A stretch of DNA of 64,000 nucleotides, taken from positions 23,000 to 86,999 of IMG/VR virus record IMGVR_UViG_3300032293_000813; one strand, 5' to 3'. The notes below the pieces were generated by a model that saw only the letters and a list, made by a program, of their open reading frames with translations, made no database searches and had not been told where the DNA came from. Positions 3,535 to 39,640 of this stretch are shown here, one piece after another (the first letter of the stretch is position 1; every line of letters begins with the position of its first letter). Both the position numbers and the translations under genes were made by a program. The DNA is from a virus. Taxonomy: Duplodnaviria > Heunggongvirae > Uroviricota > Caudoviricetes.

Positions 3535-4050
3535 TTAAACAAATAGATTATGTCTATCAAAACTATTTTCCAAAACATTTTTCATAGAACCCGCTTCCCA
3601 TTTCATATCCAATAAATAAGCAACCCTAATATTATCACCTGTATTAATTACATTATGTTCTATCCTCTGTGAATCAAACCAATGTATTTTACCATCTTCG
3701 AATCTAGTACTGTATTCAACTTCATCCAATTTAAACCAATTTATGCAATTTTCATTTGAGATAATAGGAAGTATAAATCTTCTATATTCATGCCCACCAT
3801 CTTTGTGCCAATCTAATTTACCAGAAGGATGTGTAAAAAATAAAAATATATTATCGATTTCTAACCCATCGAATATAGGTAATACTAATTCATTAAATTG
3901 TTTCAACTTAGGTAACTGATAATTACTATCTAAATTATGCATTGTTACCGTTGGGGTGTGCTCTGATATGGAACTCGTATCATACTGCGCCTTTATTTCC
4001 TTTAGTAACAAATCGGAATCGAATGTTATTTTAGATGTATATAATTCCAT
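3535..4050 (-). CDS. Fe(II)/2-oxoglutarate oxygenase (Asp/Asn beta-hydroxylase-like)
   Basis: HxD motif (WHKDG), distal His in EHNVINTG and RV..LLD, consistent with a DSBH oxygenase. Confidence 0.7.
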   Translation of the reverse strand: MELYTSKITFDSDLLLKEIKAQYDTSSISEHTPTVTMHNLDSNYQLPKLKQFNELVLPIFDGLEIDNIFLFFTHPSGKLDWHKDGGHEYRRFILPIISNENCINWFKLDEVEYSTRFEDGKIHWFDSQRIEHNVINTGDNIRVAYLLDMKWEAGSMKNVLENSFDRHNLFV

Positions 4051-7000
4051 TATCTACTAAATGTGAATATTCCTAAAATTTGATTCAATGGTGCAAAAGC
4101 TCCAGTTAATTTATAGGTTGCTCCCTTATAAGAAAATACAATACCTTCATTCGGTACAATCTTATCAAATCCACCTAATGCATTTAATCTAGTCAATTCT
4201 ATTTCTAATTTAGCTAAGTTTTTCGCATCACCGGTTGCTCTAATAGATGATATAGCAGTTTCTAGTCTACCCACCATTTCTTGTTTAGCCGCTTCCGGAT
4301 TTGCAGTTAATACTGATGTCATAAATGAAAGAACATCTGCGCCAACTCCTAAGAATATCTCTTCAAACTTAAGAAGATTATCCTTTGTTATTTTAGCCTG
4401 GTCTTTCTTATCAGTTTGGTCTGCCCACGCTTTTAGCTTTGTATCTTTGATATCAGCTAAACGGAAACTCTTATCTCCGAAAGCCCATCTCTTAACTAAT
4501 CCTATCTTTTGCTGTTCATCTAATGAAGGTGCGTTCTTATCTACAAATTGTCTCCACCAAGCCTGATGATAATCTGCTACACCATTTTTATCAGTTAATC
4601 CAAACTCACTTTGAAGTTTAGTTATCATTGCTAAGTAAATTGATTGCTTAGCTTTTAAATCTTTATTAACAGGTAGTTTTTGAATTGGAGGCCCTTGTAT
4701 AGTAAACTTAGATTGAACATCTGCGTTTATTTTCTTAACCATTGCCGCCAACTTAGCCCCTGCTGCAGGATTTTCTCCTACTGCATCTCCACTTTCGTTG
4801 TATTCCATTGTTCCATGAAATACTAATAATGATGTACCATATGGAACTACGTTTGTATTCTCTGGATAAATGATTTCACAATTCATAAAACATTTACCAT
4901 CTTTGAATATACCTTTCTTATCCGTATCAGATAATCCTCTTACCGCTGATTCTAAATCTTTAATTGCAAACGTAAACGCATCTGATACAGAACCTCTACC
5001 AGCAAACTTACTGATTACATCCTGAACTCCCATTGCATCTTTACCTTTACTCTTTAAATGTGATTTATTTCTAGCAGCTACTAATCTTCCGTTTACCCAA
5101 CTAATAGCCAATGCCTGTCCATCTGTTTTTTCTCTCGCTAATTCCAACTTACCATTTAATGCCTGTTTAACTATATTCTTTAAATCAGCGAATGTAAGAT
5201 TCATCTGTACATCAAATGGATGATTCATATGTCCGTATGCACCACCTTCCATTATTAAGGATTCAGTTGTGAATACTGGAGTAGCCGATTTGAAATCCGC
5301 TTTTCGCATCACCGTCTTAGCAATCAATTTATTAGCCACTTTGATAAATGCTATATTGATTTTAGAACGATTATCCGTTACAACAAACTCTCTATATTTT
5401 TGTAAGAATTCTAAGAATTTCTTTTTATTTTTTGCCAATCTTTTAAAGAATCCAGTTAATTCGGCGGGAGATATTTCCTTACCATTTCTAGGGTCGTTTA
5501 ACCTTTGAAAGAAATGGTCGGTTTCTTTTCCTAACTCTACATCCTCTGGACTCATTTGAGAATCTGCATATTTTTCAACAGCATCCATATCAGCTTTCGC
5601 CATTTCAAATGCTTTATTCTTAATCTTATACCATCCACCTCCTGGTGTTCTGAATATTCTTGCAGGAATTTTAAATGTAGAACCTATTGGTAATTTACTC
5701 TGATATTGCTTATCTATATGAATTACCTTTGTTATGAATTCTTTTGTTTTGTTATCCGCTCCAACTAATTCTACTTCTATTTTTACAGGTGTTCCCCCAA
5801 TCTTAATAGTTCCACCATATAAGCCGGCATTAAGTTCTGTTATAACACTTTCCTTTTCCATTTTTGCCAACTTATCGTAGTACTTAGGGTCTTCGTATAA
5901 ATGGTCAAATGCAATTTCTTTGGCAACATTAACATCTGTCGTATGTTCCATTTCTACCTTCATACCCCTTTTAAGGTCTTTAACAATAGTATCAACACTT
6001 ATATTGTGTTTTTTTGCAATATCATTAAGTGTCATTCCTTTTGCTAATCCTCCTGGTATCTTATCTTCTCTAAATGGTTTTACCGGCCCCTTTATGGTAG
6101 CATGGATTGAAGCCCATTTTTTAGCTAAATCTCTCTGTGCTATTCCTATATTAGAATCCTTTTCAGTTGGTTTAGTTATACCACCCATTACATTTCCATT
6201 AGGAGTATTTGGTGTCTTAGGTTGTCTAAGATAAGGATTGGGAACTTTTAAATCATCAACTCCCAATCCAGATGGATGGGGAATTTCTCTCGGATGTCTA
6301 ATATTATTATCGGCATCATCATCTGTATATTCAACTTTTCCTTCCCAAAATCTTTTAATCTTTTTTACTTTCTTACCCGCATCCACATTTTCCCAATCTT
6401 CTACTTTATGTGGCTGTGTCGCAGGGTCTAAATCCGTTCCTTTTATATTCTGAACCTTATAGTATAATTTTCTAAACTGAGATTCTTTATCTTTAGTTCT
6501 ACCCTTACCCCTCATATTATCCGCTCTAGGTTTGTCGATTTGTTTCATTCCTAATTGCTTTAACCAAGGCTCAGGCTTACCTCTATCTATAATTCTCAGA
6601 TTACCATCCGGTGTATATCCTGAATCCGGTTCTCCATCTGATTCAACTCCACCGGTTCTAGCTATCTCTGATATAACTTCTTCGGATAACTTAGATAATT
6701 TAAGTGTTATTAGTTTGAATATACTCTCATCAAATTTAGGATATGCTTTTAGAAAATCTTTCTTAGATTGCTCATCCCCAGCCTTTAACCAATTTCTAAC
6801 CTCCGTTCCACTAATTGGGTTTGATTGAGCAGGAGATGCATAAACATATCCTTTATCCCTATACCCCACTTCTACCTTACCCTTATATGGAGTAAAATAT
6901 TTACCACTTAATCTCATTTCATCCTTTTCACCAACTACTGTAATAAACCCAGTTGTTTCCTCCGGATATGAAGCTAACACCTCCATCGGTGCGTAAGGAT

Positions 7001-7271
7001 TTCTAACCTCTACGATTTTATTAGATGGTATCCCAAACATCTTCTGCATAATCATCTTTTTCTCCCTAAAATTAAATGGAGATTTTTGATTATCAGTTTT
7101 ATTAGATGTTGCAATATACACACTATCCTTACCAAATTTCTTTATAAGATTTTCATAGGTTGCAAAGTGTCCCTTATGAAATGGTTGAAATCTACCGGAA
7201 TATACCACTATGGTCTTCTCTATCCCTTCCAAAAGAATCCCATCTACTAAAAATTGAGTTAAACTATTCAT
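4050..7271 (-). CDS. Modular polyprotein: HIGH-type cytidylyltransferase-like domain, DUF5661-like module, small conserved phage domain and C-terminal ligase-like (KxDG) nucleotidyltransferase domain
   Basis: SGRFQPFHKGH (HIGH); KIPGGLAKG...VEMEHT...DHLYEDPKYY; HFFQRLND...KTVMRK; EGGAYGHMNHPFD...EKTDG...NEGIVF..YKLTG. Start moved to ATG 7271 (MNSLTQFL), just downstream of the late-promoter motif at 7278-7286. Confidence 0.7.
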   Translation of the reverse strand: MNSLTQFLVDGILLEGIEKTIVVYSGRFQPFHKGHFATYENLIKKFGKDSVYIATSNKTDNQKSPFNFREKKMIMQKMFGIPSNKIVEVRNPYAPMEVLASYPEETTGFITVVGEKDEMRLSGKYFTPYKGKVEVGYRDKGYVYASPAQSNPISGTEVRNWLKAGDEQSKKDFLKAYPKFDESIFKLITLKLSKLSEEVISEIARTGGVESDGEPDSGYTPDGNLRIIDRGKPEPWLKQLGMKQIDKPRADNMRGKGRTKDKESQFRKLYYKVQNIKGTDLDPATQPHKVEDWENVDAGKKVKKIKRFWEGKVEYTDDDADNNIRHPREIPHPSGLGVDDLKVPNPYLRQPKTPNTPNGNVMGGITKPTEKDSNIGIAQRDLAKKWASIHATIKGPVKPFREDKIPGGLAKGMTLNDIAKKHNISVDTIVKDLKRGMKVEMEHTTDVNVAKEIAFDHLYEDPKYYDKLAKMEKESVITELNAGLYGGTIKIGGTPVKIEVELVGADNKTKEFITKVIHIDKQYQSKLPIGSTFKIPARIFRTPGGGWYKIKNKAFEMAKADMDAVEKYADSQMSPEDVELGKETDHFFQRLNDPRNGKEISPAELTGFFKRLAKNKKKFLEFLQKYREFVVTDNRSKINIAFIKVANKLIAKTVMRKADFKSATPVFTTESLIMEGGAYGHMNHPFDVQMNLTFADLKNIVKQALNGKLELAREKTDGQALAISWVNGRLVAARNKSHLKSKGKDAMGVQDVISKFAGRGSVSDAFTFAIKDLESAVRGLSDTDKKGIFKDGKCFMNCEIIYPENTNVVPYGTSLLVFHGTMEYNESGDAVGENPAAGAKLAAMVKKINADVQSKFTIQGPPIQKLPVNKDLKAKQSIYLAMITKLQSEFGLTDKNGVADYHQAWWRQFVDKNAPSLDEQQKIGLVKRWAFGDKSFRLADIKDTKLKAWADQTDKKDQAKITKDNLLKFEEIFLGVGADVLSFMTSVLTANPEAAKQEMVGRLETAISSIRATGDAKNLAKLEIELTRLNALGGFDKIVPNEGIVFSYKGATYKLTGAFAPLNQILGIFTFSR

Positions 7272-7277
7272 ATCTCT

Positions 7278-7286
7278 AATAAATAT
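7278..7286 (-). promoter_or_regulatory. Putative late promoter (polyprotein)
   Basis: ATATTTATT, 6 nt upstream of ATG 7271. Confidence 0.55.
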
Positions 7287-8116
7287 CAAAAAGTATCGTA
7301 TTTCTCTTTTATGTAACCATCCAATAATTCTGCGAATTTGATATGGGAAAAATAACCTGGATGTAAATCCATAGTTAGTAAATCCGTATCCTCTGCTATA
7401 GTAGATTTAGTATCAACTGAAAATTGGTGGAAATCCGTATAAATTTTATTCCCTATTTTCAATTTTAACATATTATTCTGTTTGAATATAGAATCTATAC
7501 CTATATTGAACTCTCCTTCAAAAAATATAAATTTTATATTATTAAGCTTAAGAAATGATAAAAATGTATCCAATTCTCTGGTTATCTTTGTAAACTCTGT
7601 TTTTCTACTATAGAAGTTTTCTAAATAAACTCTAAGATTTTTAGCCCCAATTCTATCAAAATCCATATAAGTTTCTTCCGTTGAGTATTTTCTAGTTGCA
7701 AAAAGATGATTATATGTCTCATCACTATAATCGGTTGAGGTATATAGTATGTTACATATAATATAATCGTTGAGCTTTTTAGAAAACATATCCAATCTAG
7801 CTAATGATGGTAATTCTAATATAAGAAATAACTCATCCTTTTGTTTCCAATTCTTTTTGACAAACTCATACGCCATTCGAATACTTCTACCTGTACCTCC
7901 ACCACTTGTGGAATCATTTACCACATCACAACCAATTATATTAGCTAACCTATGTGAATAGGTAGTCTCTTCTTGAGTATCCCACCATACATTATATCTA
8001 TCTCTATAGTAGTCTCTAACAAAGGTTTTATTATCTGTCAGAGTAGAGGTTAATTCTAATCCTCCTCCTGCACTATGCGAACATCCGTTACAATAAATTA
8101 GCTTTATATTCTTCAC
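7286..8116 (-). CDS. SGNH/GDSL-like hydrolase or acyltransferase
   Basis: Block I-like NGCSHSAG, G-rich GGGTGRS and C-terminal DLHPGYFSH. Confidence 0.55.
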   Translation of the reverse strand: MKNIKLIYCNGCSHSAGGGLELTSTLTDNKTFVRDYYRDRYNVWWDTQEETTYSHRLANIIGCDVVNDSTSGGGTGRSIRMAYEFVKKNWKQKDELFLILELPSLARLDMFSKKLNDYIICNILYTSTDYSDETYNHLFATRKYSTEETYMDFDRIGAKNLRVYLENFYSRKTEFTKITRELDTFLSFLKLNNIKFIFFEGEFNIGIDSIFKQNNMLKLKIGNKIYTDFHQFSVDTKSTIAEDTDLLTMDLHPGYFSHIKFAELLDGYIKEKYDTF

Positions 8117-9437
8117 CTAAAATTTCTTTACATAAATTAACTTCAGCCATTTCGTAATCGAAAGTAAGAAGTTTCATTTGGTTATATAATAAAATATCCT
8201 CTATTTCTTTAATCTTTATTTTTAACTCTTCTATTGGTATATTACAGATTCTATTGATTTCCGCATTTACCATAGATAACCGCTTCATATCATCGAATTC
8301 GATATCATAACTTTCATCTATAAATCCATCGAATGTTTTGAACCCCATTTCCCTAACCGCTTTTAAATATAATGGAGGAGCTGCTATTAAGAACGGCTGA
8401 AGATACATTATAGGTTTAAATATCTTTTCTGATATAAACCCCTGTTGTTTAAAAAATATAGTATCACTAATCAAACTTATAAATGATTTTTTATAAACTG
8501 ATATATCCTCAAAACCATACCCACTTATCTTAAGAGTTGTATCAAAATCTACCCTATGTTCTGGTAGTGTTAAAACATATTGATAATCCTCCCATAATCC
8601 TAATTCTTTTATTTGGTTTTCATAATCAAATCTATGTTCTCCCAAACTCTCATAAAACTTTGGATTAAATGAAATTAAGAATTTAGATTGCAAATCATTT
8701 TTAAACACATTTGTTATAATGTTTATACGATGATGATGTAACCATTGATTAAAACTTAAGAAATGAAATTGTTTTTGTGAGTAATCTAACAATTCAGGAA
8801 TGTAATTATCTTTCAGATTACTTTGAAAATATTTAGCACTTCTGTTTAGATAATAATTAAATGGAATAAAACTTATATTCTTAGATGCTATATTTGAAAA
8901 ATCATTTAGATAATCATTATAGATAAAAATAACCTTTTTATATTTTAATTTTTTTAATATTTCTAATATAAAAAATTCGTTTAAATGCCCTTCATGTGAA
9001 TAATTGATTAGTATAGTTGCATTTATCTTCTTTATCTTTTCAAATAATCCGTAACTTACACCTTCATAATTGTTCTTAAAAAAATTAATGTGACCAAACG
9101 GTTCTAATATATAGAAAAACTTCTGCCCTTTATATTCTCCCCATTTTTCTATTACATCATCTATATGATGTGTTTTCATCTTAACATCGTATTTCTGATT
9201 GTACTCATTCAATGTTAAAATCTGAAACCCCATATTATTACCCATTACGGTAATATCATTTGAAAATTTGGAGAATAGATGCTTTACCAAATGTCCACCA
9301 TCAGTAGATTTATTTTCGATAATCCACCTCATCGCCGCATCCAACACTTCAGGTGGTTGCCCGTTTGGTAGACATAAATCTTTTATCTTATTATCATATA
9401 CAAAATTAAGATGCATAGTATAGTTCAGGATATTCAA
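8088..9437 (-). CDS. Putative glycosyltransferase (GT10/GT47-like GT-B C-terminal motif), paralog 1
   Basis: FLSFN..HHRI...ISEKIFKPIMYLQPF...GFKTF..IDESYD, shared with 12700-13920 and 13904-15172. Confidence 0.5.
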   Translation of the reverse strand: MNILNYTMHLNFVYDNKIKDLCLPNGQPPEVLDAAMRWIIENKSTDGGHLVKHLFSKFSNDITVMGNNMGFQILTLNEYNQKYDVKMKTHHIDDVIEKWGEYKGQKFFYILEPFGHINFFKNNYEGVSYGLFEKIKKINATILINYSHEGHLNEFFILEILKKLKYKKVIFIYNDYLNDFSNIASKNISFIPFNYYLNRSAKYFQSNLKDNYIPELLDYSQKQFHFLSFNQWLHHHRINIITNVFKNDLQSKFLISFNPKFYESLGEHRFDYENQIKELGLWEDYQYVLTLPEHRVDFDTTLKISGYGFEDISVYKKSFISLISDTIFFKQQGFISEKIFKPIMYLQPFLIAAPPLYLKAVREMGFKTFDGFIDESYDIEFDDMKRLSMVNAEINRICNIPIEELKIKIKEIEDILLYNQMKLLTFDYEMAEVNLCKEILGEEYKANLL

Positions 9438-9948
9438 CTAAACAATGTATTCCTACATTATCCATAGCATATTTGTAACCCAACTCTATATCTTGCCACG
9501 ATTTTAAATCGTGAAATTCTATATTCTTACATAGAGATTTAAATTCATCTAAGTAGTTTCCTTTATGTTGATGTCCAGGGTCTAATGGTTTATCAGAACC
9601 CTTTCCCAATCTAATTAAGATGTGAGGTTTAACTCCGGTCATCATTTCGTATTTATCCAAATGATTAACCAACTGATTAGTCGCTGATATAATGAAATCC
9701 CAACGTGGATAAAATGTAACCACACACTTTCCTGCCATAGCTAATCCTAAACTCATACCCATTTGCGTTTCCTCCATTACAGGCAATTCAATCATTAAGT
9801 TTTTATCTACATTATCCAAAGTAGTACTCATAGGATTCCCTCTATAGATAATCTGTTGTCCGATGAAAACGATATTATCTTTTTTGGAAAGTTCTTCCAT
9901 CGATTTACTTAACGCATCTTTATATGGTGTGTATTCTGGTTGACTCAT
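9406..9948 (-). CDS. ThDP-dependent enzyme beta-like subunit (transketolase pyrimidine-binding domain only)
   Basis: FIGQQI...ELPVMEETQMGMSLGLAMAG...PRWDF...NQLVNH. Start set at ATG 9948 (MSQPEY), which overlaps the upstream TGA as ATGA. Confidence 0.8.
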   Translation of the reverse strand: MSQPEYTPYKDALSKSMEELSKKDNIVFIGQQIIYRGNPMSTTLDNVDKNLMIELPVMEETQMGMSLGLAMAGKCVVTFYPRWDFIISATNQLVNHLDKYEMMTGVKPHILIRLGKGSDKPLDPGHQHKGNYLDEFKSLCKNIEFHDLKSWQDIELGYKYAMDNVGIHCLVEYPELYYAS

Positions 9949-10850
9949 TTTATATATTTTACCAATTCTTCGTTTACAAATTTTTTGTTTAAGATTGATG
10001 ATGGGTGTCCGTACCAATCAAAGTTTCCATCTAAGTTTTCACTAAATAGAACCTTCTTCAATCCATCATAGTTATCCACATTCTTTTGATTTCGAACTGC
10101 ATATTCATATAATCCTCCTTTCCTCAGACCTTCCTCTTCATAAAACCAAAATTTATGGAATGGGAGCTTATTCAAATATACGGAAAAATATTGAGAATTC
10201 CTAATAAAGTAATCCATATTTTCATTCTTATATATCTCACCATTATAAACATCAGTTGTTCTAAACTCTGGCTCATAGAATATATCCTTAAGTGTAAAGT
10301 ATGTATAATCTATTCTTTCCTTTTCTAAATAATTTGAAAGGTCTATTATAGTTTCCACTAAAGAATAGGAATGATTTTGGCTTAACATTTGATGATGAGT
10401 TTTCAATATCCCATCTAACCCAATATACTTTGAGTTATTGGTTTCATAATATCCACCTGTTAAATACCAAAACTCATCTTTGTAATTTTTAGGTGTAGGT
10501 AGATAGTTCACTGTATGCGAACCTATTTCCAATTCACCTTTGTAATCCTTTATTAAGAATGAATCTCTATAAGGTTGAGTCCATTGTGCAAATACTTTAT
10601 CAACTATACCACCATTCTCTCTGATATATTCTATCCAATATGTAATACTCCTTTTAATAGTGTTATTGTCGTTCGTAGGGTTGCCCAAATTTAAGACGAT
10701 GTATTCATCTCCTAACATATTTTGCAACCATTCTGGCCACTGCAAACCCTCTACATTGTAAAGGTCTTTTGTCATATGGTTCAATGGTCGTAGGTTAGTA
10801 AATGAACACCCGCCACAAAGAATATATTTCTTATTTTTTGAGATATTCAC
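9945..10850 (-). CDS. SGNH/GDSL-like hydrolase or acyltransferase
   Basis: CGGCSFT block I, WPEWL...NLG...N and C-terminal GHPS. Confidence 0.55.
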   Translation of the reverse strand: MNISKNKKYILCGGCSFTNLRPLNHMTKDLYNVEGLQWPEWLQNMLGDEYIVLNLGNPTNDNNTIKRSITYWIEYIRENGGIVDKVFAQWTQPYRDSFLIKDYKGELEIGSHTVNYLPTPKNYKDEFWYLTGGYYETNNSKYIGLDGILKTHHQMLSQNHSYSLVETIIDLSNYLEKERIDYTYFTLKDIFYEPEFRTTDVYNGEIYKNENMDYFIRNSQYFSVYLNKLPFHKFWFYEEEGLRKGGLYEYAVRNQKNVDNYDGLKKVLFSENLDGNFDWYGHPSSILNKKFVNEELVKYIK

Positions 10851-11790
10851 TCTTATACCAATTTATACTTTTTTCTAATCCTTCCTTAATTGAAGTTTTA
10901 GCAATCCATCCTAATTTATCAAAAATCTTAAATGAATCAATTAATCTTTTTGGAATCATAGGTGCTTTGTTATTCACATAATCAATAGGAGATTCTAATC
11001 CTTCTATTTCTTTAAGGTATTCTATTACTTCGTTTACCGAATATCCTGCATTAGAACCTACATTATAGATTTCATGATGTTCTTCTTTCTCCATTATGAT
11101 TTGAAGAGCCTCACAAAAATCTTCTACATAAAGAAGGTCTCTAATTTCAGTTCCATCCCCCCAAACAGGAATTGGGTCTAATCGAGTCGCCACTTTGATA
11201 ATTGAAGCAGGTGTAACATGACACTTATCTAAATCATACTTATCATGCGGCCCATATAGATTTGCAGGTCTAACGATTACAGTTTGCATTGGATTAATTA
11301 AAATCTCTGAATACATCTTGCATAATACTTCCGCATATCTTTTCATCCAACCAACTGGAAAATATGTTTTGTAAATTGATTCGTAGATGTTATCAGTTTC
11401 ACACACTGCTCTTTCACCACTCTCAGGATAGATTGTAGATGAAGATAAGAATATAAACTTCTTAACACCTTCTTTATATGCTTTCTCCATTGTTAAAGCA
11501 TTGATGATTACATTTGGAGTAACGTGAAGTAATGGTGCATAAATTGTATCTACTGCATTTGAAGTAGATGCTGCACAATGGTACACTACATCAACTCCCT
11601 TCATAATTTCCTCTACAAACTTATCATCTCTTAAATCACCCTGAACTGATTCTCCGAATCCTTCTAACTTTCTATTGAATCCGTGATTACGAAGGTTGGT
11701 ATATCCTTCTTTGTATAATCTCTCCGCTAAGTTTCTACCAACGAAACCTGTAGCACCTAAAATTAGGATTTTGCTATTTGTGTTTATCAT
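10831..11790 (-). CDS. NAD-dependent epimerase/reductase (GDP-fucose-synthase-like extended SDR)
   Basis: GATGFVG Rossmann motif, RPANLYGPHDKYD...HV and VWGDGTEIRDLLYVED. Confidence 0.85.
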   Translation of the reverse strand: MINTNSKILILGATGFVGRNLAERLYKEGYTNLRNHGFNRKLEGFGESVQGDLRDDKFVEEIMKGVDVVYHCAASTSNAVDTIYAPLLHVTPNVIINALTMEKAYKEGVKKFIFLSSSTIYPESGERAVCETDNIYESIYKTYFPVGWMKRYAEVLCKMYSEILINPMQTVIVRPANLYGPHDKYDLDKCHVTPASIIKVATRLDPIPVWGDGTEIRDLLYVEDFCEALQIIMEKEEHHEIYNVGSNAGYSVNEVIEYLKEIEGLESPIDYVNNKAPMIPKRLIDSFKIFDKLGWIAKTSIKEGLEKSINWYKSEYLKK

Positions 11791-22232: not shown

Positions 22233-23668
22233 TTACAATTTATTAATACTGAATTATTACCAATGTCTTCTATATTCAATAGTTCGTATTTCAAACTATT
22301 CATCCCATCATTCTGCCAATTATATTTTCCCTGCTGCATCTCTAACACATATCTCTTCTCATTTCTTGCAGTTGTTGCCCCTTTCTTCCATTTACCATTT
22401 ACCAATCCTTCGGTTTCATGTGGTAAACATTCAAACTTACCATTTCTTCTATAAGGTATAACGGTTGATGGTATCTCCATTTTCTCTTTGGTAAATGTAA
22501 CATTATGCATTTTACCATGATTACCATTTCCCGTTTTATCTTCAACCATCTCATCGATGAAAGAATCAAAATCATAATGAAGTTGTAAACCATCTTCTTC
22601 TAAATGAAATGGAATATCTGCTACCTCACCATCCGTCATACATCTATCATACATTCTAACTTCAGCAATTTCTCCCTTAAAAAACTTGTTCGGTTGATTT
22701 TGATTTATAGAAGGAGATGTTCCCATATAAAATCCTTCCGTTCCATATCTCTTTAAATCACCACTATATTCCATTGGAGAAGTTACACCTGTTCCAAATC
22801 TAGCATCTGTTTCTCTTCCGTTTAAATAGAAGTGAATCTTTTTATTATAAGCATCCACTTTCAAAGTTACCCATGTCCATAAATTCTCATATCGCTTCAT
22901 CCACATATATTGCATCTCCTTCTCACTATTCCATAACATCGAAGTAAATGCTCTACTATTGTTATATGATAATCCCCAATCATATCCTGGTCTTCTTAAG
23001 ATAGGATATTCCCAAAATCTTCTATTCTCATCTCCGATTAAGTAGATAGGAATCTTTTCTTCTTGTTGGTGTGCCTTTACTAATACTGAAATAGTATGAG
23101 AACGATTACACATAAATCGGATAGAACGAGATTGTGCGGTTTCTATATAGGATTTTATTCCATCAAAATTAGCCACACTAAATTCATTCTGTGGTTTGAT
23201 ATATGTTTGGTCTGCCATCCCATTTAATGCACATCTCCAAAACAAATCATCATCTTCCATACCCCAATCCCAATAATCATTTGAGTAACCATTGGTTTTG
23301 TAAACTTGTTCTTTTGTAAACAATACAGCGCCCCCAAAATACTCCTCATATTTGAGGTTATAATCTGTTTGAGATATTCTTACCGCCAAATGTTTTGGGT
23401 TCTCAGGATTGTAACTATAATCACACGAATCATCTTCTGGTATCATATCAATATCATGCCATACGATATAATCACATCCATCCTTAAATGCCACATCCGC
23501 TGCAATGTTTTTCATCTTACCTCTGTTAAAAAGTAAGTTATCACATTGGTGTGCAAAATATATTTTATGCTCAATACCTCTCTCTTCCAAAAATTTGTGA
23601 ACTCTCGGTGAGAACTGAGCTAAATGTTCTTCTCTGTTTCTATATGGTACACATACCCCTAACTTCAT
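22226..23668 (-). CDS. GT7 (beta-1,4-galactosyltransferase-like) glycosyltransferase with inserted LamG domain
   Basis: VPYRNR, FNRG, HDIDMIP and NGYSNDYWDWGMEDDD, then LamG (FKGEIAEVRMY...DKTGNGNHG), then the GT7 tail (LPH...NEKRY...DGMNSLKY). Confidence 0.85.
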   Translation of the reverse strand: MKLGVCVPYRNREEHLAQFSPRVHKFLEERGIEHKIYFAHQCDNLLFNRGKMKNIAADVAFKDGCDYIVWHDIDMIPEDDSCDYSYNPENPKHLAVRISQTDYNLKYEEYFGGAVLFTKEQVYKTNGYSNDYWDWGMEDDDLFWRCALNGMADQTYIKPQNEFSVANFDGIKSYIETAQSRSIRFMCNRSHTISVLVKAHQQEEKIPIYLIGDENRRFWEYPILRRPGYDWGLSYNNSRAFTSMLWNSEKEMQYMWMKRYENLWTWVTLKVDAYNKKIHFYLNGRETDARFGTGVTSPMEYSGDLKRYGTEGFYMGTSPSINQNQPNKFFKGEIAEVRMYDRCMTDGEVADIPFHLEEDGLQLHYDFDSFIDEMVEDKTGNGNHGKMHNVTFTKEKMEIPSTVIPYRRNGKFECLPHETEGLVNGKWKKGATTARNEKRYVLEMQQGKYNWQNDGMNSLKYELLNIEDIGNNSVLINCKC

Positions 23669-25101
23669 AACTCTACTGAAATCATTTTAGCCTTTTCAGA
23701 TAATTCTTTTTCTTCTACCTTTTTATATCTTAATGTATTCAATCCTTCAATCGAATAGAATAACACATCGTCTTTAATTGAATTGAATCTTAACTGATTC
23801 TTTCTAGTCTCTTCCCAAACCCATCTATTTCCTTCTACACTATTAGATGAATGTTTAAGTGTTTTGAACTTACAATCCTTTTTAGTTGGAATCGTAACCT
23901 CTACCATAAACTTACTATTCATCAATGTGTTAGCCTGGCAATTGATAATCTCAGCATCAAAGTTGTTACCGGATATATCAATCAATTTATCCTTTCTATA
24001 ATGTCTGAAATCGTAATATGTTTTTAAACTCTTAGATGATTTATATTTACCAAAATTATTCAATAGGGATTTCTTAGCTGAATCTTTATATATTTGATTG
24101 ATTTCAGGCAAACTTAATGCCTTATCAAATACCGCAAACTCAGAAATCAATCCTTTGAAATAATAATTCTCATAATTCTTAGATGGATTGGCAACTCCTA
24201 AATAGAAATCGGTTACATTGTAATCATACATATCTTCTATAAATTCCTCACCTATTAATTTACCATTGATAAACAACTCAATACTTTTACTACGATAGTT
24301 TCGTTTGATAACTGCGTGTACCCACATATCAGGACTAATATCAGATGTTATACTTCTACTCTTTTCTTCTTTATCCCATATATCCAATTTGTATCTATTG
24401 AAACTATTATAGGATAGAGAGAAGTTAAAACCAGGAATAGAGAATATTGTGTATTCATCGTATTCTCTGTTTGAGTTATTAACTAAATCCTCTGCTTTAA
24501 ATTTAATAGAGATACTGAAATCATCATTAAGTATCTTTTTAAATTGAGGAAATGGAATACTAACAAATGAATCAATTCCGTTAAAGTAGAAATAATTCAA
24601 TACAAAGTTTTCATCCTCTATACCAAATACTTTTTTATCCAATGTAAGATTACAACTCTCACATCTTTTTAAAAGGTCATCATCCTCAAAACCCCAACCC
24701 CAATATTCGTTAGAGTAACCATTAATAATTTTGAAATCTAATTTACTCAATATAGTAACTCCACCAAAATAGTTATAGAAACTTTCTTCGCCATTAAGAG
24801 TGTTAGCTAAGTGAGTTGGTACATCACAATACGAATAATCCGCATCGATAGGTAACATATCCACATCATGAAAACAATAGTAATCAAAATCAGGTCCACT
24901 TTCTTTATAACCTACATTCAACAACTTACCTCTATTAAAAGGTTTATCATCTTTTTGTTCAATGACAAAAACCTTGTAATCAACTTTAGTTCCTAAATAT
25001 TCTTCAATATATGGAATAAAGATGTTAAGGTGAGATTCCCTATTTCTGTAAGGAACTATTATTGCTAATTTCTTAGTTGTTGTTTTACTGCGGTCTTTCA
25101 T
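23665..25101 (-). CDS. GT7 glycosyltransferase with inserted LamG domain
   Basis: VPYRNR, FNRG, HDVDMLP and NGYSNEYWGWGFEDDD, LamG (FKGLISEFAVFDKAL), then the GT7 tail (EGLNTLRY). Confidence 0.85.
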   Translation of the reverse strand: MKDRSKTTTKKLAIIVPYRNRESHLNIFIPYIEEYLGTKVDYKVFVIEQKDDKPFNRGKLLNVGYKESGPDFDYYCFHDVDMLPIDADYSYCDVPTHLANTLNGEESFYNYFGGVTILSKLDFKIINGYSNEYWGWGFEDDDLLKRCESCNLTLDKKVFGIEDENFVLNYFYFNGIDSFVSIPFPQFKKILNDDFSISIKFKAEDLVNNSNREYDEYTIFSIPGFNFSLSYNSFNRYKLDIWDKEEKSRSITSDISPDMWVHAVIKRNYRSKSIELFINGKLIGEEFIEDMYDYNVTDFYLGVANPSKNYENYYFKGLISEFAVFDKALSLPEINQIYKDSAKKSLLNNFGKYKSSKSLKTYYDFRHYRKDKLIDISGNNFDAEIINCQANTLMNSKFMVEVTIPTKKDCKFKTLKHSSNSVEGNRWVWEETRKNQLRFNSIKDDVLFYSIEGLNTLRYKKVEEKELSEKAKMISVEL

Positions 25102-25318
25102 CGTTAGGTCTTTCTGAATCTCTCATTGGTCGAGATACACTTCCTAAGTTTTTAGCTTTTAAAATAGTGTGAAATTCATGTAAGTACCATTCAACTCTTG
25201 TTCCCCAAGCTGATTTATCGATTTCAAACATCCAATCATTTAAATCTCTGAAAGATGAAGCAATATCTTCTAATGCTCTTACCTTTCTCTCTTCTAAGTT
25301 TTTTTCGTCTACTGCCAT
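25085..25318 (-). CDS. Small hypothetical protein, tandem paralog A
   Basis: 77 aa; alignable end to end with 25333-25566. Confidence 0.7.
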   Translation of the reverse strand: MAVDEKNLEERKVRALEDIASSFRDLNDWMFEIDKSAWGTRVEWYLHEFHTILKAKNLGSVSRPMRDSERPNDERPQ

Positions 25319-25332
25319 AACTTAATGTTTAA

Positions 25333-25566
25333 TTATTGAGGTCTTTCAGTTCCCTTTTCAGGTCTTCCTGTGTTACCAATAGTTTTCGCTTTTGCAATCA
25401 TATAGAATTCGTTTAAATACCATTCTAATCTTTCCGACCATCCTTTGGTATCTAACTCATACATCCAATCTTGAATGTTTTCCAATGAACCTGCAATCTT
25501 TTCAAAAGCCTTAACAGCTCTTTCTTCGATGTTATCGGTTTGTTCTGGTTTTTTAGATGTTGCCAT
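25333..25566 (-). CDS. Small hypothetical protein, tandem paralog B
   Basis: 77 aa; shares W-M-x-E-x-D...W..R.EWYL.EF and C-terminal ERPQ with 25085-25318. Confidence 0.7.
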   Translation of the reverse strand: MATSKKPEQTDNIEERAVKAFEKIAGSLENIQDWMYELDTKGWSERLEWYLNEFYMIAKAKTIGNTGRPEKGTERPQ

Positions 25567-25567
25567 T

Positions 25568-25816
25568 TTATTTATTTTTTAATTTATTTTCTGTTTTGTG
25601 TTGAAAGAATCCTGTTGGAAATGGAGTAGCCTGCCTCGATGAATAATATTCTCTTAATAATTCTAATGCAGAGAATATTATCGGTTGTACATATGAGAAG
25701 GTTTGAAGTGTTTTATTCTTTTCAAAAACTTCTAATGCTTCCGCTACTCTTTCCGCTTTACTAACAAATTCTTCGTTGTTAATAAGTTTTTTTACTATAG
25801 AACTATCTTTATCCAT
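25568..25816 (-). CDS. Small hypothetical protein
   Basis: 82-aa ORF filling the gap in a tightly packed operon. Confidence 0.5.
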   Translation of the reverse strand: MDKDSSIVKKLINNEEFVSKAERVAEALEVFEKNKTLQTFSYVQPIIFSALELLREYYSSRQATPFPTGFFQHKTENKLKNK

Positions 25817-27282
25817 GTTGCTTTTTCATTTATTTGTTCTTCTGATAAAATCTTATAATTTAAATAATTCAATCCTACCTCTTTTGTATCCAATCTATTT
25901 GTTAATACTTCGTTGAAATATATTTGAGAGTTTTGTACAATATCCGGGTCCCAACTATAAAACTTCTCCGTTATTTGGTCATCACCTTCGTGGATTAAAG
26001 ATTGATACTTACCTAATATTCTAGATGGAACTGATAAACGGGATGTTTTTGGTATCGTATCCTTTTTAAGATACTCCGAATAGTTTCCGAATTCAGGTCC
26101 ATATATCTTAACGTGATTAAGAGTTAATGAATCATCTAAAATAAAATCTCTATATGTTTTATCAAACTTAATATTCAATACAGGCTCTAAATCTGTATTC
26201 TTTTTCTCATCATTATATCCTTCTAAATAAAGGTTATCAATTTCTCGTTGTTCTAACACATAATCAAATAACAATACGTTAGCCATCTTACCATTATATC
26301 TAGCGGTATTCAAACTACTACATCCTAAGAATAAGTGTTCGTTTGTATAATCATATAAAGGTGTTACGATGTAAGGTTGTTGGTCTCCTGTATAACTTAT
26401 CTTAACTGAGTTTAAATACATCTCAATTAATTCCTTATTATAATCAACAACAAATACTACATGATTCCAAACACCTGGTTCATATTTCTTATATGCAAAA
26501 CAATACTGTTTATCATTATCATAAACATTCACTCTTATTGTACCATCTTTCTGTAATGATATACCGGTATTAAATCCTTTCCAAGCAATTAAGTATTCCT
26601 CTTCTTCTACCATATCAGAATTGAACCATAATGCGGCAGTAAAACTATCTCTCGTAATATCTCTTAATTGAGCATTAGGAAATATCTTTAGGTACAAATC
26701 GTTACCACTAAAGTCCGCATAGTTTACCTGCTCAATATATTTCTTATCTGTTATCTTAATCTTTTCAAATTCATAATAAGAATCTATGCGAGGAAAAATT
26801 GTTTCTTCATCTAATTCAATTTCGTTTATTCTACATCTGTGAAGTAAATCTAAATCAGCAAACCCCCATCCCCAATACTCATTTGAAAATCCATTTATCT
26901 TTTCGAAATCTTCTTTACTAAACATAACAACACCACCCATATATTCTAAGTAAGGTAACTTAAACTTATGAGCAGATACTCTAGTTGCCATATGAACGGG
27001 ATATCCACCAATGTGAATGTAATTGTAATCACAATCATCACTTACAGGCAGCATATCAATGTCGTGGAAACAGAAATAATCAAATTTATCTTTCAATAAA
27101 GAGAATCCTATATTACAGATTTTTCCATAGTTAAATGGTTTATCATCGGTTTGCTCAACAATAATAATTTCATACTCTACATCTTTGTTCTTAAAGAACT
27201 CAATCATGTGAGGTACGAAAGTATCTAACTGCTCTCGTCTATCCCTATAGGGTACTATTATCGCTATCTTTTTTCCGTACAT
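25795..27282 (-). CDS. GT7 glycosyltransferase with inserted LamG domain
   Basis: VPYRDR, FNYG, HDIDMLP and NGFSNEYWGWGFADLD, LamG (YNGKMANVLLFD), then the GT7 tail (VGLNYLNY). Confidence 0.85.
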   Translation of the reverse strand: MYGKKIAIIVPYRDRREQLDTFVPHMIEFFKNKDVEYEIIIVEQTDDKPFNYGKICNIGFSLLKDKFDYFCFHDIDMLPVSDDCDYNYIHIGGYPVHMATRVSAHKFKLPYLEYMGGVVMFSKEDFEKINGFSNEYWGWGFADLDLLHRCRINEIELDEETIFPRIDSYYEFEKIKITDKKYIEQVNYADFSGNDLYLKIFPNAQLRDITRDSFTAALWFNSDMVEEEEYLIAWKGFNTGISLQKDGTIRVNVYDNDKQYCFAYKKYEPGVWNHVVFVVDYNKELIEMYLNSVKISYTGDQQPYIVTPLYDYTNEHLFLGCSSLNTARYNGKMANVLLFDYVLEQREIDNLYLEGYNDEKKNTDLEPVLNIKFDKTYRDFILDDSLTLNHVKIYGPEFGNYSEYLKKDTIPKTSRLSVPSRILGKYQSLIHEGDDQITEKFYSWDPDIVQNSQIYFNEVLTNRLDTKEVGLNYLNYKILSEEQINEKATWIKIVL

Positions 27283-28136
27283 TATATTGAAACTATGTGT
27301 TTAGATAGTTTATTCCAATTACTGAAAGATACGAAGGATTTTTCAGATTTCCAAGTGAATTCTTTGTATTTTTCCAAATCTATACAATATCCATAATCCT
27401 CTATACCATTCAACATTATCTGATATTCTCTTGAGTAAGAATAATCTTGTCCAATCTTTGCTACCGCTTTCAATCTATCTACTACACTCTTATCCCATTT
27501 GAAATGGTGAACTTGTACAAATCCCTTATTAATTGGATATCTCAATGGGTGATTCCAACCTTGCCATCTCCAAGTTGATTGCCCTTCTATTTGAGCATAA
27601 TGTTGACCGGATGTTACTTCAATTCTACCTTTACATAATGTAACTTTATTTGGACAGGCTCCACTCATTGGGTATCTAAAAAATGAACTGATAGGAAATG
27701 CTTCCCATAAATCCGTATTCTCATCTACAAATGGAAAACTACCATCTTCTCCAATCTTATCTATAAATCCACCGGTTACAAATTCCCATCCATTATGTTC
27801 ACACTCTTCTATTATAGAATTTACATCATCCCAATACAAATGTAATTCATCATCATCCGCTACTATCCACCAATCGTTGGGATATAAGTTCTTTATCTCA
27901 TTGTAGAAATGTGTTACTGAAATCCAATTGAATGCATCCGATTCTCTTTCGTGCACAATACATCCAAATTCTTCAGCAATCTCATTAACTCTATCGAATG
28001 ATTCTTTATTGTTTACATCAAGAGTTCTGTAATTAACCAAATGAATTTCACTCACTATATCTTTATAATGAGATAACATCTGTCGTAGAGTATTTGTTCT
28101 ATGACCAGTAACGGTTATTAATCTAGGTTTTTTCAT
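27282..28136 (-). CDS. GT-A fold glycosyltransferase (GT2-like)
   Basis: DxD-type WWIVADDDELH and a later VHHFKW, typical of Glyco_tranf_2_4-like proteins. Confidence 0.6.
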   Translation of the reverse strand: MKKPRLITVTGHRTNTLRQMLSHYKDIVSEIHLVNYRTLDVNNKESFDRVNEIAEEFGCIVHERESDAFNWISVTHFYNEIKNLYPNDWWIVADDDELHLYWDDVNSIIEECEHNGWEFVTGGFIDKIGEDGSFPFVDENTDLWEAFPISSFFRYPMSGACPNKVTLCKGRIEVTSGQHYAQIEGQSTWRWQGWNHPLRYPINKGFVQVHHFKWDKSVVDRLKAVAKIGQDYSYSREYQIMLNGIEDYGYCIDLEKYKEFTWKSEKSFVSFSNWNKLSKHIVSI

Positions 28137-28891
28137 TTTCTTCGTATGAGTGTTAATCCAGTAGATGATGGTTTATTTTTTATGATACCAAAATTAAATA
28201 AGTTAAATACTTCCCAATCTTTACTATCTTTCAATTCTTTTACAAATTGAATAGGCCCACTCCAATCATCGTGGTCACCTCTATCTTTTATTTCATTTGT
28301 TATAATATAGTTATCAGCATATTTCGAATCAGTATCGTGTATTGAGATGATACCATTTTCTGATAATATTTGTGAGTATAAATCAAAATCTTCCTTAACG
28401 TTTTCATATGAATGTCCTGCATCTATGTGTAAATAATCAATCTTAATATCGTTTAATACAAAGTAATTGTGAAATGCCTCTTCGGTAGTTGTGTTAATAA
28501 TTCTAGGATGAAAAGTTCTTCTGTAAAATGATTCTTCTGCAAACCAATCTACATTACCACCAATACCATTCATTGCATCAACTACATAAGTTGTTCCAAT
28601 ATCTCCCCAATTATAATCAGCATTTCCTTCGAAGATTCCTTGCCTATGTAAATCGTATCTAGATTGTGTCATTAGACGAGGAATAAATCCTCCTCCACTA
28701 CCTAAACATACACATACTTTAGCTCTCATATATTGTATAATAGAATATATGATTAAACCATCGCCTAAGTGTACATCGGTTGCTCCGTGAGACCATCTAT
28801 AGGGAACAGGATGCTCCTCTTCTTCACCTCTAAAATCAAACTCTAAATTGTTAGTGAGGTACTTCTTTATGTAGTTTAAGTCTTGTAACAT
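28133..28891 (-). CDS. Class I SAM-dependent methyltransferase (Methyltransf_24-like)
   Basis: LGSGGG motif I and IDYLHIDAGHSYENVKEDF...IISIHDT. Confidence 0.8.
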   Translation of the reverse strand: MLQDLNYIKKYLTNNLEFDFRGEEEEHPVPYRWSHGATDVHLGDGLIIYSIIQYMRAKVCVCLGSGGGFIPRLMTQSRYDLHRQGIFEGNADYNWGDIGTTYVVDAMNGIGGNVDWFAEESFYRRTFHPRIINTTTEEAFHNYFVLNDIKIDYLHIDAGHSYENVKEDFDLYSQILSENGIISIHDTDSKYADNYIITNEIKDRGDHDDWSGPIQFVKELKDSKDWEVFNLFNFGIIKNKPSSTGLTLIRRK

Positions 28892-28914
28892 CTATTGAAT
28901 ATAACTATTATAAT

Positions 28915-28952
28915 ATACTACAAAGATACTAAAAATTCATCACTTTTCCAAC
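28915..28952 (-). promoter_or_regulatory. Bacteroidota sigmaA-type promoter upstream of the methyltransferase and glyco island
   Basis: On the minus strand, GTTG (28952-28949), a 20-nt spacer and TATCTTTG (28928-28921). Confidence 0.55.
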
Positions 28953-29921
28953 TTTATTTTTCCAATTTTCTAAGGATGCAAACCCCCCCATATACTCTCT
29001 TAACTTATTGAATTCCAACACTTTAGAGTCATATGTTTCGATTGCAATTTCCTTCACAATTTCATCAAAATCTTCCTTAGTTTCTACCCTATATTTGTAA
29101 TCACATTCTACTCCCCAATCTTTATGAAGTATAGGAAGTTTACCATAGTTTACCGCATCAAATACTGAATACCCAAATGGTTCGTTTTTGTAAGCAGAAT
29201 GAAATGTTTGCCAACTCTTATCTATAAACCATTGACGGTGAATACTCATATCAAACTCATAGAACTTACATCTCTTAAAATCGTATTGCTCTGATATGTT
29301 ATAATAATCATATTTGTGAGTGAGAACTTTTGCAGTATGCCCACTTAACCAATGTGGATTCTTTCTACTTTCAAATCGTGCAGCGTATCCAATAGTTTCC
29401 GTATCTACATCAACCAATTCTCTATTCTCCGTAAATGTATAATAATTAGGTATAGTAATACAATCCCATTCATCTAAAAGTGAAGAGTGATTTAATCCTA
29501 TCCAAATTCTATTCTTACATTTTCTTAATAGTAGATTTTGCCATCCTAAATCAATCTTTGTTGGATATAATTTAAAATCAGTTCCAGCTTCTGTTATATC
29601 TTTTGCATATGCCTGAATGAATACTGAATTCCACTTATCCTGATATTCCATAAGGTACTCTCTATGTGAATACGGTGGGTGTAGGAAGATTATTCTATCA
29701 CATCTATCCAATGTATCCTCCACCATTTTGGGGTTCTCTAAACGGAAGATATGGGGTATAGAAATGGATGATTGAATATGTTTAGCAGGTCGTTTATTAT
29801 CGATTATCAAACATACTTCTTCTTCGATGGTAGGAACTATATGTTGAATAAAATTATTTACCCATATATCCCCTCCACCGATAATTTGATTACCCGCAGA
29901 TGTCGTAACAAATACTATCAT
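28929..29921 (-). CDS. GT-B fold glycosyltransferase (GT4-like)
   Basis: N-terminal GGGDIWVNNF and C-terminal EPFGYSVFDAVNYGKLPIL (ExFG-x4-D/E motif). Confidence 0.6.
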   Translation of the reverse strand: MIVFVTTSAGNQIIGGGDIWVNNFIQHIVPTIEEEVCLIIDNKRPAKHIQSSISIPHIFRLENPKMVEDTLDRCDRIIFLHPPYSHREYLMEYQDKWNSVFIQAYAKDITEAGTDFKLYPTKIDLGWQNLLLRKCKNRIWIGLNHSSLLDEWDCITIPNYYTFTENRELVDVDTETIGYAARFESRKNPHWLSGHTAKVLTHKYDYYNISEQYDFKRCKFYEFDMSIHRQWFIDKSWQTFHSAYKNEPFGYSVFDAVNYGKLPILHKDWGVECDYKYRVETKEDFDEIVKEIAIETYDSKVLEFNKLREYMGGFASLENWKNKVGKVMNF

Positions 29922-35783: not shown

Positions 35784-35819
35784 GATAAATACCGTTTTAT
35801 TGTATTTATTTATAAATAT
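35784..35819. promoter_or_regulatory. Divergent late-motif cluster between the tail fibre and RHH genes
   Basis: Minus strand GTATTTATC (35792-35784) and ATATTTATA (35819-35811); plus strand GTATTTATT (35802-35810). Confidence 0.5.
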
Positions 35820-35860: not shown

Positions 35861-36023
35861 TGCAATGTTACAACTCCCAAAAGAGATTCATACTGCATTA
35901 AAAGACTATTGCGATGAGAGAGGTTATAAAATGAGTAGGTTCGTATCTAACCTAATTAAAGATAAAATACGAACCACTAATAAAGCTAGGAATGTTCTTC
36001 CTGTCGATAAAGTTAGAATTTAA
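35838..36023 (+). CDS. Ribbon-helix-helix (CopG/Arc-like) DNA-binding protein
   Basis: 61 aa with an alternating strand YAMLQL, then helix IHTALKDYCDERG and helix MSRFVSNLIKDKI; the only credible plus-strand gene. Confidence 0.7.
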   Translation: MIKKSERYAMLQLPKEIHTALKDYCDERGYKMSRFVSNLIKDKIRTTNKARNVLPVDKVRI

Positions 36024-39639: not shown

Positions 39640-39640
39640 A

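Follow-up and report, generated by a model that had tools for sequence, protein, structure and literature searches.

A conserved glycosyltransferase and radical SAM gene island behind the tail fibre gene of a freshwater T4-like phage, a predicted pathway for glycan assembly in the host cytoplasm

The window analysed here, a stretch of 64,000 nucleotides, corresponds to positions 23000-86999 of the linear 164.5-kb virus record IMGVR_UViG_3300032293_000813, the completeness of which is estimated at 83%. Directly behind the gene of a large tail fibre protein it carries a dense block of sugar-related genes (7286-29921; ~22.6 kb, 26 genes including three small ones). Based on our results, we suggest that this island forms an accessory operon, with probable late transcription, in a freshwater myophage of the T4-like type. 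Its enzymes would make unusual nucleotide sugars, pass these step by step to a macromolecule in the host cytoplasm and tailor the resulting product. The acceptor is most likely a cytoplasmic macromolecule, since the enzymes are soluble, radical S-adenosylmethionine (SAM) and nucleotide-sugar chemistry need the cytoplasm, and no initiation or export genes were found in the island. The acceptor that we favour is a virion protein, in the first place the Ser/Thr-rich fibre whose gene lies directly upstream, and in our estimate this has about an even chance.

An original prediction, read from the letters alone, had placed the island at 3535-29921. It listed about eight putative glycosyltransferases (GTs) of four types, three short-chain dehydrogenases/reductases (SDRs), the E1 alpha and E1 beta subunits of a thiamine diphosphate (ThDP) enzyme, a methyltransferase, two radical SAM enzymes, a pyridoxal phosphate (PLP)-fold protein and two SGNH-like proteins, all co-oriented, and Pfam and NCBIfam matches, family alignments, structural models and motifs bore this inventory out. 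PHROGs and NCBIfam gave nothing for ten open reading frames (ORFs) left unnamed by Pfam; most of the unnamed ORFs were assigned through family alignments built from related loci. Sequence and profile searches of the PDB returned no match for the GT10-like, GT4-like, GT92-like, SGNH-like and PLP-like proteins. Of two 2-oxoglutarate (2OG) oxygenases that were also listed, the Asp/Arg-hydroxylase-like cupin at 3535-4050 stands by its family match, and the protein at 16579-17109 was called from an HxD...H motif, with no family match. The gene block is real, but its claimed span has to be shortened. The NMN-adenylyltransferase/NadR-like protein encoded at 4050-7289 (1079 amino acids, 42% identical to its counterpart in Flavobacterium phage vB_FspM_immuto) belongs to the backbone common to both phages, and therefore the accessory island begins at 7286. 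The link of the cupin gene to the island is uncertain, because this backbone gene stands between them.

A search of IMG/VR with one of the radical SAM proteins gave 255 relatives, and 80 loci were fetched for comparison. The island families co-occur in these loci, and an ordered core is present in at least 36 of the 80: methyltransferase, GT92-like GT, optional small proteins of a family here called s77 (absent from about half of the core cassettes), GT7, GT7, N-terminal-twitch radical SAM enzyme and, mostly, a LamG protein. The core is followed by a variable arm of GT10-like GTs, SDRs and E1 alpha/beta, which in relatives also holds RmlC, UDP-glucose dehydrogenase, carbamoyltransferase and more radical SAM genes (frequencies of the families are given in Table 1). 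The ratio of nonsynonymous to synonymous substitutions (dN/dS) was 0.03-0.30 for every gene tested, and in the comparison with the closest relative 20 of 20 orthologous pairs gave values of 0.05-0.30 at dS ~1. A decaying host lipopolysaccharide (LPS) locus, named at the outset as a finding that would overturn the prediction, is ruled out by the intact frames, this purifying selection and synteny in dozens of phages. The expectation that such a pathway would be unusual did not hold among uncultured aquatic T4-like phages, given the frequency of the core and at least 7935 clusters of the radical SAM family in metagenomes.

In two complete or near-complete carriers of the cassette, one of 289 kb with terminal repeats and one of 156 kb, there is a gene for the T4 capsid protein Gp23. 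Among 50,697 GenBank phage records there was no homologue of the LamG-containing GT7 and a single full-length radical SAM homologue, in the Ralstonia jumbo phage RsoM2USA (38% identity). In a set of 185,579 prokaryote species represented by one genome each, full-length GT7-LamG was found on ~10 contigs of metagenome-assembled genomes. Six such contigs with more of the island (L085-L088, L091, L094) are probably binned phage DNA, because they bear the same cassette in the same order. About 96 other prokaryote genomes (chlamydiae, Steroidobacteraceae and others) have only a bare GT7 core of 150 residues.

The most distinctive enzymes of the island are the three GT7 paralogues. All of them match Glyco_transf_7N and 7C with 63-86 bits (cut-offs 23-27), and in the family alignment H71, D72 and D74 are invariant, the consensus reads YWGWGFEDDD, and the DxD and WGWGxEDDD motifs both align to beta4GalT1. 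The family profile matches beta4GalT1 with E = 2e-50, but the match is split: query residues 2-151 correspond to 65-216 of the chain and residues 422-468 to 231-276. In the AlphaFold2 (AF2) model of the paralogue encoded at 22226-23668 (pLDDT 88.8), Foldseek aligned the core to beta4GalT7 and beta4GalT1 (34-36% identity, 1.4-2.3 A) and the middle to pentraxin/LamG folds. Instead of a contiguous beta4GalT catalytic domain with a short acceptor loop, these enzymes have two core pieces split by a LamG fold. We take the break to coincide with the long flexible loop of beta4GalT1, a loop that shuts over the donor and makes up the site of the acceptor and of alpha-lactalbumin. The inserted LamG would therefore sit where the acceptor is chosen, presumably holding it. 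The cores are 57-92% identical as against 33-77% for the inserts, and dN/dS is higher in the inserts.

The phage enzymes thus resemble animal beta4GalT1 and beta4GalT7 (CAZy GT7; PDB 2ae7, 1fr8, 4irq and 3lw6) in core identity, in the DxD and WGWGxEDDD motifs, in the C-terminal DGL..L.Y and in the GT-A fold. They differ by the ~250-residue LamG fold on the acceptor side, and in being viral and cytoplasmic, without a signal anchor. In one related locus (L017:4175-6919) a single ORF of 914 amino acids joins GT7-LamG to an N-twitch radical SAM enzyme, either as a natural fusion or as a sequencing artefact.

LamG domains also accompany the radical SAM enzymes. Both of these score far above the cut-off of NF033640 (N_Twi_rSAM; 324 and 328 bits, cut-off 170), and the alignment shows as invariant C137, C141 and C144 (CX3CX2C) together with an N-terminal four-Cys domain (C22, C41, C83, C86). 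The nearest solved structure in a PDB profile search was MoaA, with E = 0.002 only. We know of no studied member of the NF033640 family. The island enzymes share its score class, four-Cys N-terminus and CX3CX2C motif, and are set apart by LamG coupling inside a glycan cassette: a LamG gene lies directly after 67 of 140 radical SAM genes in the related loci, mostly with overlaps of -4 or -1 bases. Three LamG families are connected by hhalign at 97-99% probability. Mean column identity is 67% in the radical SAM alignment versus 27% in that of LamG. Conserved catalytic parts and divergent LamG parts are the expected pattern of a specificity module that follows a variable substrate. A complex prediction for the proteins encoded at 18795-20180 (radical SAM) and 18058-18795 (LamG) scored 0.27 against a mark of 0.32 and was counted neither way. 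Tentatively, and with a modest probability, we suggest that the LamG domains are interchangeable acceptor-recognition adaptors, which direct glycosyltransfer and radical chemistry to a fibre-attached glycan.

The original prediction had placed the pathway in the cytoplasm. A hydropathy scan and a family search agree with a soluble, cytoplasmic pathway: in the island they turned up neither a flippase nor a polymerase, a phosphoglycosyl transferase or a protein with several membrane passes. Signals resembling transmembrane segments were limited to isolated hydrophobic windows buried in the folds of the SDRs and of E1 alpha. The whole record contains one multi-pass ORF, with five segments and no match to a glycan-export family. 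The membrane parts of seroconversion, Wzx-Wzy and Gtr systems (GtrA/GtrB/Gtr-specific GT, initiating phosphoglycosyl transferase, flippase, polymerase) were found neither in the island nor in this ORF, an absence that is not absolute in a genome ~83% complete.

On the other side, the island is closely tied to the tail fibre. It begins 6 bp after the gene of the 1945-residue S74 fibre protein, and all ORFs of at least 80 amino acids in 3535-35765 lie on the minus strand, abutting or overlapping. The GC content is even (29-36%), without a compositional break at the island, and the stretch from 36 kb to 7 kb has only one intergenic gap of note, the 248 bp upstream of the fibre gene. This gap holds a T4-late-type TATAAATA box at 35807-35814, ~40 bp before the fibre ATG, with overlapping boxes on both strands (35807-35818). 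The intergenic scan found no terminator between fibre and island; scans for sigma-70 promoters and terminators gave hits at or below chance. Soluble GTs of the phage are in this way genetically linked to structural genes. In the related loci the ordered core usually stands right behind fibre-type genes, which encode S74-ended proteins in 14 of 45 (within a flank of ~5 kb) and Hint-ended, collagen-repeat or LamG fibre-like proteins in others. The protein upstream of the cassette in locus L011 (22-2577; 852 amino acids) has nine stretches of collagen triple-helix repeats (PF01391, E = 1e-61). An HPAT-like gene (hydroxyproline O-arabinosyltransferase family; PF23452) and a Skp1-type GlcNAc-transferase gene (PF11397) stand at the end of the cassette nearest the fibre in four relatives (L032:2257-3866; L002, L030, L040), among them a close one with 88% identity in the radical SAM enzyme. 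Members of these two families attach sugars to hydroxyproline in proteins, and two P4H-type 2OG oxygenases are encoded elsewhere in the genome studied here.

The host recognition cluster of pelagimyophages and cyanomyophages is a hypervariable tail-fibre region in which accessory genes accumulate, and it has been read as a means of host O-chain modification (Zaragoza-Solas et al. 2020, PMC7029224). The island, as a GT- and radical-SAM-rich variable block beside the fibres of an aquatic T4-like phage, is a member of this described kind: it shares the T4-like backbone (T4-type TerL here, Gp23 in carriers), the adjacency of a large variable block to tail fibres, many GTs, LPS-type sugar enzymes and radical SAM cassettes. 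That cluster is described at the level of annotation only, and its description does not mention the ordered core, GT7 with a LamG insert or pairs of radical SAM and LamG genes; the present phage differs from pelagi- and cyanomyophages in coming from freshwater and in having a Flavobacterium phage as its nearest cultured relative. The reading given for those GT-rich clusters (PMC7029224, PMC12801897) leads to the alternative that the soluble enzymes attach and tailor sugars on undecaprenyl-linked O-antigen, capsule or glycolipid intermediates of the infected cell through host initiation and export, and thereby alter its surface, e.g. for superinfection exclusion or to reduce adsorption of progeny to debris. 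It fits the gene types, as GT4-, GT2- and GT10-like GTs, Fcl/GalE-like SDRs and the RmlC and UDP-glucose dehydrogenase of relatives are typical of O-antigen loci, and LamG/ConA-like domains are commonly glycan binders. It is harder to reconcile with the negative search of the island and the sole multi-pass ORF for an initiating phosphoglycosyl transferase, a flippase, a polymerase, an ABC exporter and a membrane protein of the Gtr type, with the lytic, T4-like type of the phage (classical seroconversion is a prophage trait), with protein-specific Hyp-O-GT families at the same position in relatives, and with a cassette that tracks fibre genes across very different phages. We attach a modest probability to it.

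Several points weigh against a virion protein as the target. No virion of this lineage has an observed glycan, and the HPAT and GlcNAc-transferase genes of the relatives were not found in this genome. The adjacency to the fibre may merely reflect the gathering of accessory genes in a hypervariable host recognition cluster (PMC7029224), and undecaprenyl-linked intermediates of the host are also open to soluble GTs, the remaining steps being left to host export. The late-type TATAAATA box is not enriched in the window (12 seen versus 20.6 expected). As to the chemistry, only one of the three SDRs retains the catalytic tyrosine, which leaves the sugar chemistry unclear, and the assignments of the GT4-like protein, the PLP-fold protein and the second oxygenase are weak.

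The small proteins inside the core allow for a further suggestion, namely that the product is a free or peptide-linked glycoconjugate, carried e.g. by s77, or a small molecule, and serves as effector or decoy instead of decorating the virion or the envelope. Proteins of the s77 family are helical and ~75 residues long, with invariant W29, W38, R41, Y45 and L46 and charged, variable tails. Its members lie between the GT92-like and GT7 genes, two of them here together with s82, and are strongly constrained (dN/dS 0.06). On the other hand, they have no conserved Ser/Thr/Asn acceptor patch, only the helical W/R/Y motif and the variable tails, are lacking in many core cassettes, as stated above, and no carrier-protein, RiPP-recognition or export family was detected. 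Such a product therefore seems improbable. Among 1.84 billion representative proteins the family forms 138 clusters, all of small stand-alone proteins, and a search of the same set for s77 fusions as a Rosetta-stone clue found none.

The original prediction had allowed for DNA as well as virion proteins as the target. An oligosaccharide on hydroxymethyl-pyrimidines or other modified bases could serve in the evasion of restriction, and hypermodification of DNA with a variety of glycans by phage GTs has precedent (Pyle et al. 2024). The GT-B model described below also resembles T4 beta-glucosyltransferase (BGT) at the generic fold level (probability 0.99, TM ~0.4). DNA is nevertheless an unlikely target, because the sole thymidylate synthase homologue (PF00303; 39641-40687) scores above the cut-offs of the ThyA equivalogs NF002496 and TIGR03284, and the phage homologues closest to it bear the annotation td/ThyA. 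The island and its surroundings showed no hydroxymethylase, hydroxymethyl-deoxynucleotide (hmdNMP) kinase or enzyme that modifies bases, and eight GTs with LamG adaptors beside fibre genes are unlike any known DNA-glycosylation locus. Only a very slim chance is left to this part of the prediction. With 348 amino acids the thymidylate synthase is longer than usual, and in the same region (39247-40687) it is followed by a 130-residue cupin with a weak match to the WbuC family of sugar-locus cupins (E = 1.3e-4).

The sugar-building genes give some indication of the product. GT7 and GT92 enzymes are typically beta1,4-galactosyl(amine) transferases. Since the GalE-like SDR (17093-18061; ~66% conserved, with canonical YxxxK) adjoins the core, a core chain containing galactose (Gal) or N-acetylgalactosamine (GalNAc) is plausible. 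The GT92-like protein has language-model neighbours (0.96-0.99) among viral 'glycosyltransferase 2-like' clusters and PF01697/PF00535 clusters. The proteins encoded at 8088-9437, 12700-13920 and 13904-15172 are mutual paralogues. The AF2 model of the last (pLDDT 88) has a GT-B fold, for which Foldseek gave a probability of ~1.0 to GT4-type enzymes (BshA, TarM) and T4 BGT, and E316-K317 are invariant in the HITEKSFKPF consensus of the family, a GT10-style TEK motif. Fold and motif would fit GT10; the structural match to the fucosyltransferase 2nzw (FucT) came at rank 50 (probability 0.91), and there was no Pfam GT10 match.

The SDRs at 10831-11790 and 11774-12703 have, in place of the tyrosine of YxxxK, a conserved P(x)GWxKR common to ~35 homologues in related phage loci. 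E1 alpha keeps the GDMS...EDNG ThDP motif and E1 beta the E..G..G.A..G motif of the Pyr domain, and by these motifs the two would together form a minimal ThDP enzyme (PP and Pyr domains). The listed TTG start of E1 beta (10017) overlaps the upstream SGNH gene by 73 bases; the true start is likely the ATG at 9948, because this gives an ATGA overlap with the upstream stop and a length of 180 amino acids, close to the family median of 182. AviB1/AviB2 of avilamycin form an E1 alpha/beta-like ThDP pair in a branched-sugar pathway. By analogy, the phage pair could add a two-carbon unit to a keto-sugar. The likeness lies in a ThDP enzyme of two subunits, similar to pyruvate dehydrogenase E1 and encoded among GTs and SDRs of NDP-sugars; the phage subunits are cut to ~180-209 amino acids each, with PP and Pyr domains only, and the homology is shared at the level of the E1 family. 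A phosphonate (Ppd-type) pathway for the split enzyme was rejected, as the subunits match E1/transketolase-type families and Pfam gave no PEP mutase family in any island ORF. Both SGNH-like proteins have a GCS(F/H) block I and an HPSxxxH block V, with DUF6071/GDSL neighbours. The protein at 15783-16640 may be a short viral class I/II PLP-fold-like protein, which we regard as a lead, and an RmlC-like identity of the one at 16579-17109 was dismissed, as hhalign found no relation to the RmlC family of relatives.

In the pathway that we propose, the SDRs, the minimal ThDP enzyme, the PLP-fold protein and the small cupin-like protein would first remodel host nucleotide sugars; the GalE-like SDR could supply UDP-Gal or UDP-GalNAc, and the ThDP pair could branch a keto-sugar by two carbons. 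The chain would then be built by the eight soluble GTs, with the GT92-like enzyme and two beta4GalT-like GT7 as its conserved core, and with the lectin-like LamG insert, taken to hold the acceptor, replacing the acceptor-side lid of GT7. Finally, the glycan would be edited by the methyltransferase, the SGNH acyl-esterases or acyltransferases and the two N-twitch radical SAM enzymes, each probably paired with its own fast-evolving LamG adaptor, and in relatives carbamoylation would be added.

The phage itself has a T4-type TerL (382-1968), with 56% identity to the TerL of Flavobacterium phage vB_FspM_immuto and 54.6% to its counterpart in Microcystis phage Mel-JY01. The Bacteroidota host assumed in the original prediction is deduced solely from the closest cultured relative. 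DNA near-identical to 20000-29900 was present in metagenomes labelled as freshwater or lake water from at least 8 studies (shares 0.41-0.77), and contigs of two such studies had 0-1 differences from island DNA over ~400 bases; the phage is therefore a recurrent freshwater population. Two RNA-type libraries contain contigs that are 90-95% alike to parts of 18-30 kb, which does not show transcription, as DNA carry-over and relatives are both possible sources. The middle of the fibre gene (~30.0-33.3 kb) had low or absent cover in DNA runs from other lakes and is not usable as a sign of fibre replacement. Upstream of the fibre, 36013-39192 encodes a single protein of 1059 amino acids with an SbcD-like phosphoesterase and an SbcC/Rad50-like ATPase, resembling a fused gp47/gp46-type recombination nuclease.

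Table 1. Genes of the island and its flanks, in the order of transcription, with the evidence for each assignment and the number of the 80 related loci in which the family occurs
Feature	Position	Strand	Evidence or remark	Family occurrence (of 80 loci)
Tail fibre, 1945 aa, Ser/Thr-rich, C-terminal Peptidase_S74 intramolecular chaperone	29928-35765	-	directly upstream of island	
GT4-like GT-B glycosyltransferase (weak call)	28929-29921	-	invariant E..PFGY..F.A...GK.PI (EX7E-type) motif; faint PF00534, residues 217-268	26
SAM-dependent methyltransferase, opens conserved core	28133-28891	-	Methyltransf_24	47
GT-A glycosyltransferase, GT2/GT92 type	27282-28136	-	WIVSDDDE motif; language-model neighbours	50
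GT7 (beta4GalT-like) with inserted LamG, lineage-specific third paralogue	25795-27282	-	Glyco_transf_7N+7C+Laminin_G_3	58-61
82-aa small protein (s82)	25568-25816	-	only in close relatives	
Two tandem 77-aa helical proteins (s77 family)	25333-25566 and 25085-25318	-	conserved cassette member	
GT7 with inserted LamG, first core paralogue	23665-25101	-	Glyco_transf_7N+7C+Laminin_G_3	58-61
GT7 with inserted LamG, second core paralogue, modelled	22226-23668	-	Glyco_transf_7N+7C+Laminin_G_3; AF2	58-61
N-terminal-twitch radical SAM enzyme	20838-22232	-	NF033640	
Stand-alone LamG-like protein, coupled to upstream radical SAM gene	20173-20841	-	hhalign 96.9% to LamG family	
Second N-twitch radical SAM enzyme, 56% identical to paralogue	18795-20180	-	NF033640	
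Stand-alone LamG protein	18058-18795	-	Laminin_G_3; start overlaps radical SAM stop	
Extended SDR, GalE-like, candidate UDP-hexose 4-epimerase	17093-18061	-	canonical YxxxK motif	29-33 (SDRs)
176-aa protein, possible small cupin or 2OG oxygenase	16579-17109	-	HxD...H motif read in sequence; no family match	
Short PLP-fold (class I/II aminotransferase-like) protein, lead only	15783-16640	-	likeness to short viral PLP-fold proteins	
ThDP-binding (PP-domain) E1 alpha-like subunit, 209 aa	15157-15786	-	GDMS...EDNG ThDP motif	28
GT-B, GT10-like TEK motif, modelled paralogue	13904-15172	-	AF2/Foldseek, alignment	46-48
GT-B, GT10-like paralogue	12700-13920	-	paralogy, alignment	46-48
Fcl-like extended SDR without catalytic Tyr	11774-12703	-	P-SWSKR motif	29-33 (SDRs)
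Fcl/GalE-like extended SDR without catalytic Tyr	10831-11790	-	PVGWMKR motif	29-33 (SDRs)
SGNH-like hydrolase or acyltransferase	9945-10850	-	SGNH motifs	
E1 beta-like (Pyr-domain) ThDP subunit, 180 aa	9406-9948 (listed 9406-10017)	-	Pfam/NCBIfam	19
GT-B, GT10-like paralogue	8088-9437	-	paralogy, alignment	46-48
SGNH/DUF6071-like protein, closes island	7286-8116	-	motifs, neighbours; paralogue elsewhere in genome	
Asp/Arg beta-hydroxylase-like cupin (2OG oxygenase type)	3535-4050	-	family match	

The capsid glycans of chlorovirus PBCV-1 and the fibril glycans of mimivirus are made by virus-encoded soluble GTs, and Freeman and co-workers reportedly described in 2023 the glycosylation of mycobacteriophage capsids and tail tubes. 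The island resembles these systems in its soluble viral GTs, Fcl-like SDRs and methyltransferase, in its predicted cytoplasmic action, independent of host secretory glycosylation, and in its position near structural genes. It differs by its radical SAM enzymes and LamG adaptors, which those systems are not known to have; a virion glycan has been demonstrated there, whereas the island is known from its genes alone. In the literature we found no studied counterpart for the conserved ordered core, the LamG-inserted beta4GalT-type enzymes or the radical SAM-LamG pairs.

Virion glycosylation has so far been a matter of giant viruses and a few mycobacteriophages. If the product of the island decorates the fibre or another virion protein, it would be a common and elaborate trait of abundant aquatic T4-like phages, with consequences for host range, for resistance to proteases or grazers and for the arms race between phage and host. 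Independently of the target, two enzyme designs of the island have no studied member: beta4GalT-type enzymes with a lectin-like replacement of the acceptor lid, and a radical SAM family with thousands of environmental representatives and LamG partners. Should the LamG domains act as adaptors, this would be the first lectin-guided radical SAM system for the editing of a glycan attached to a protein, and it would give aquatic phages a widespread means of varying or masking the proteins with which they bind receptors.

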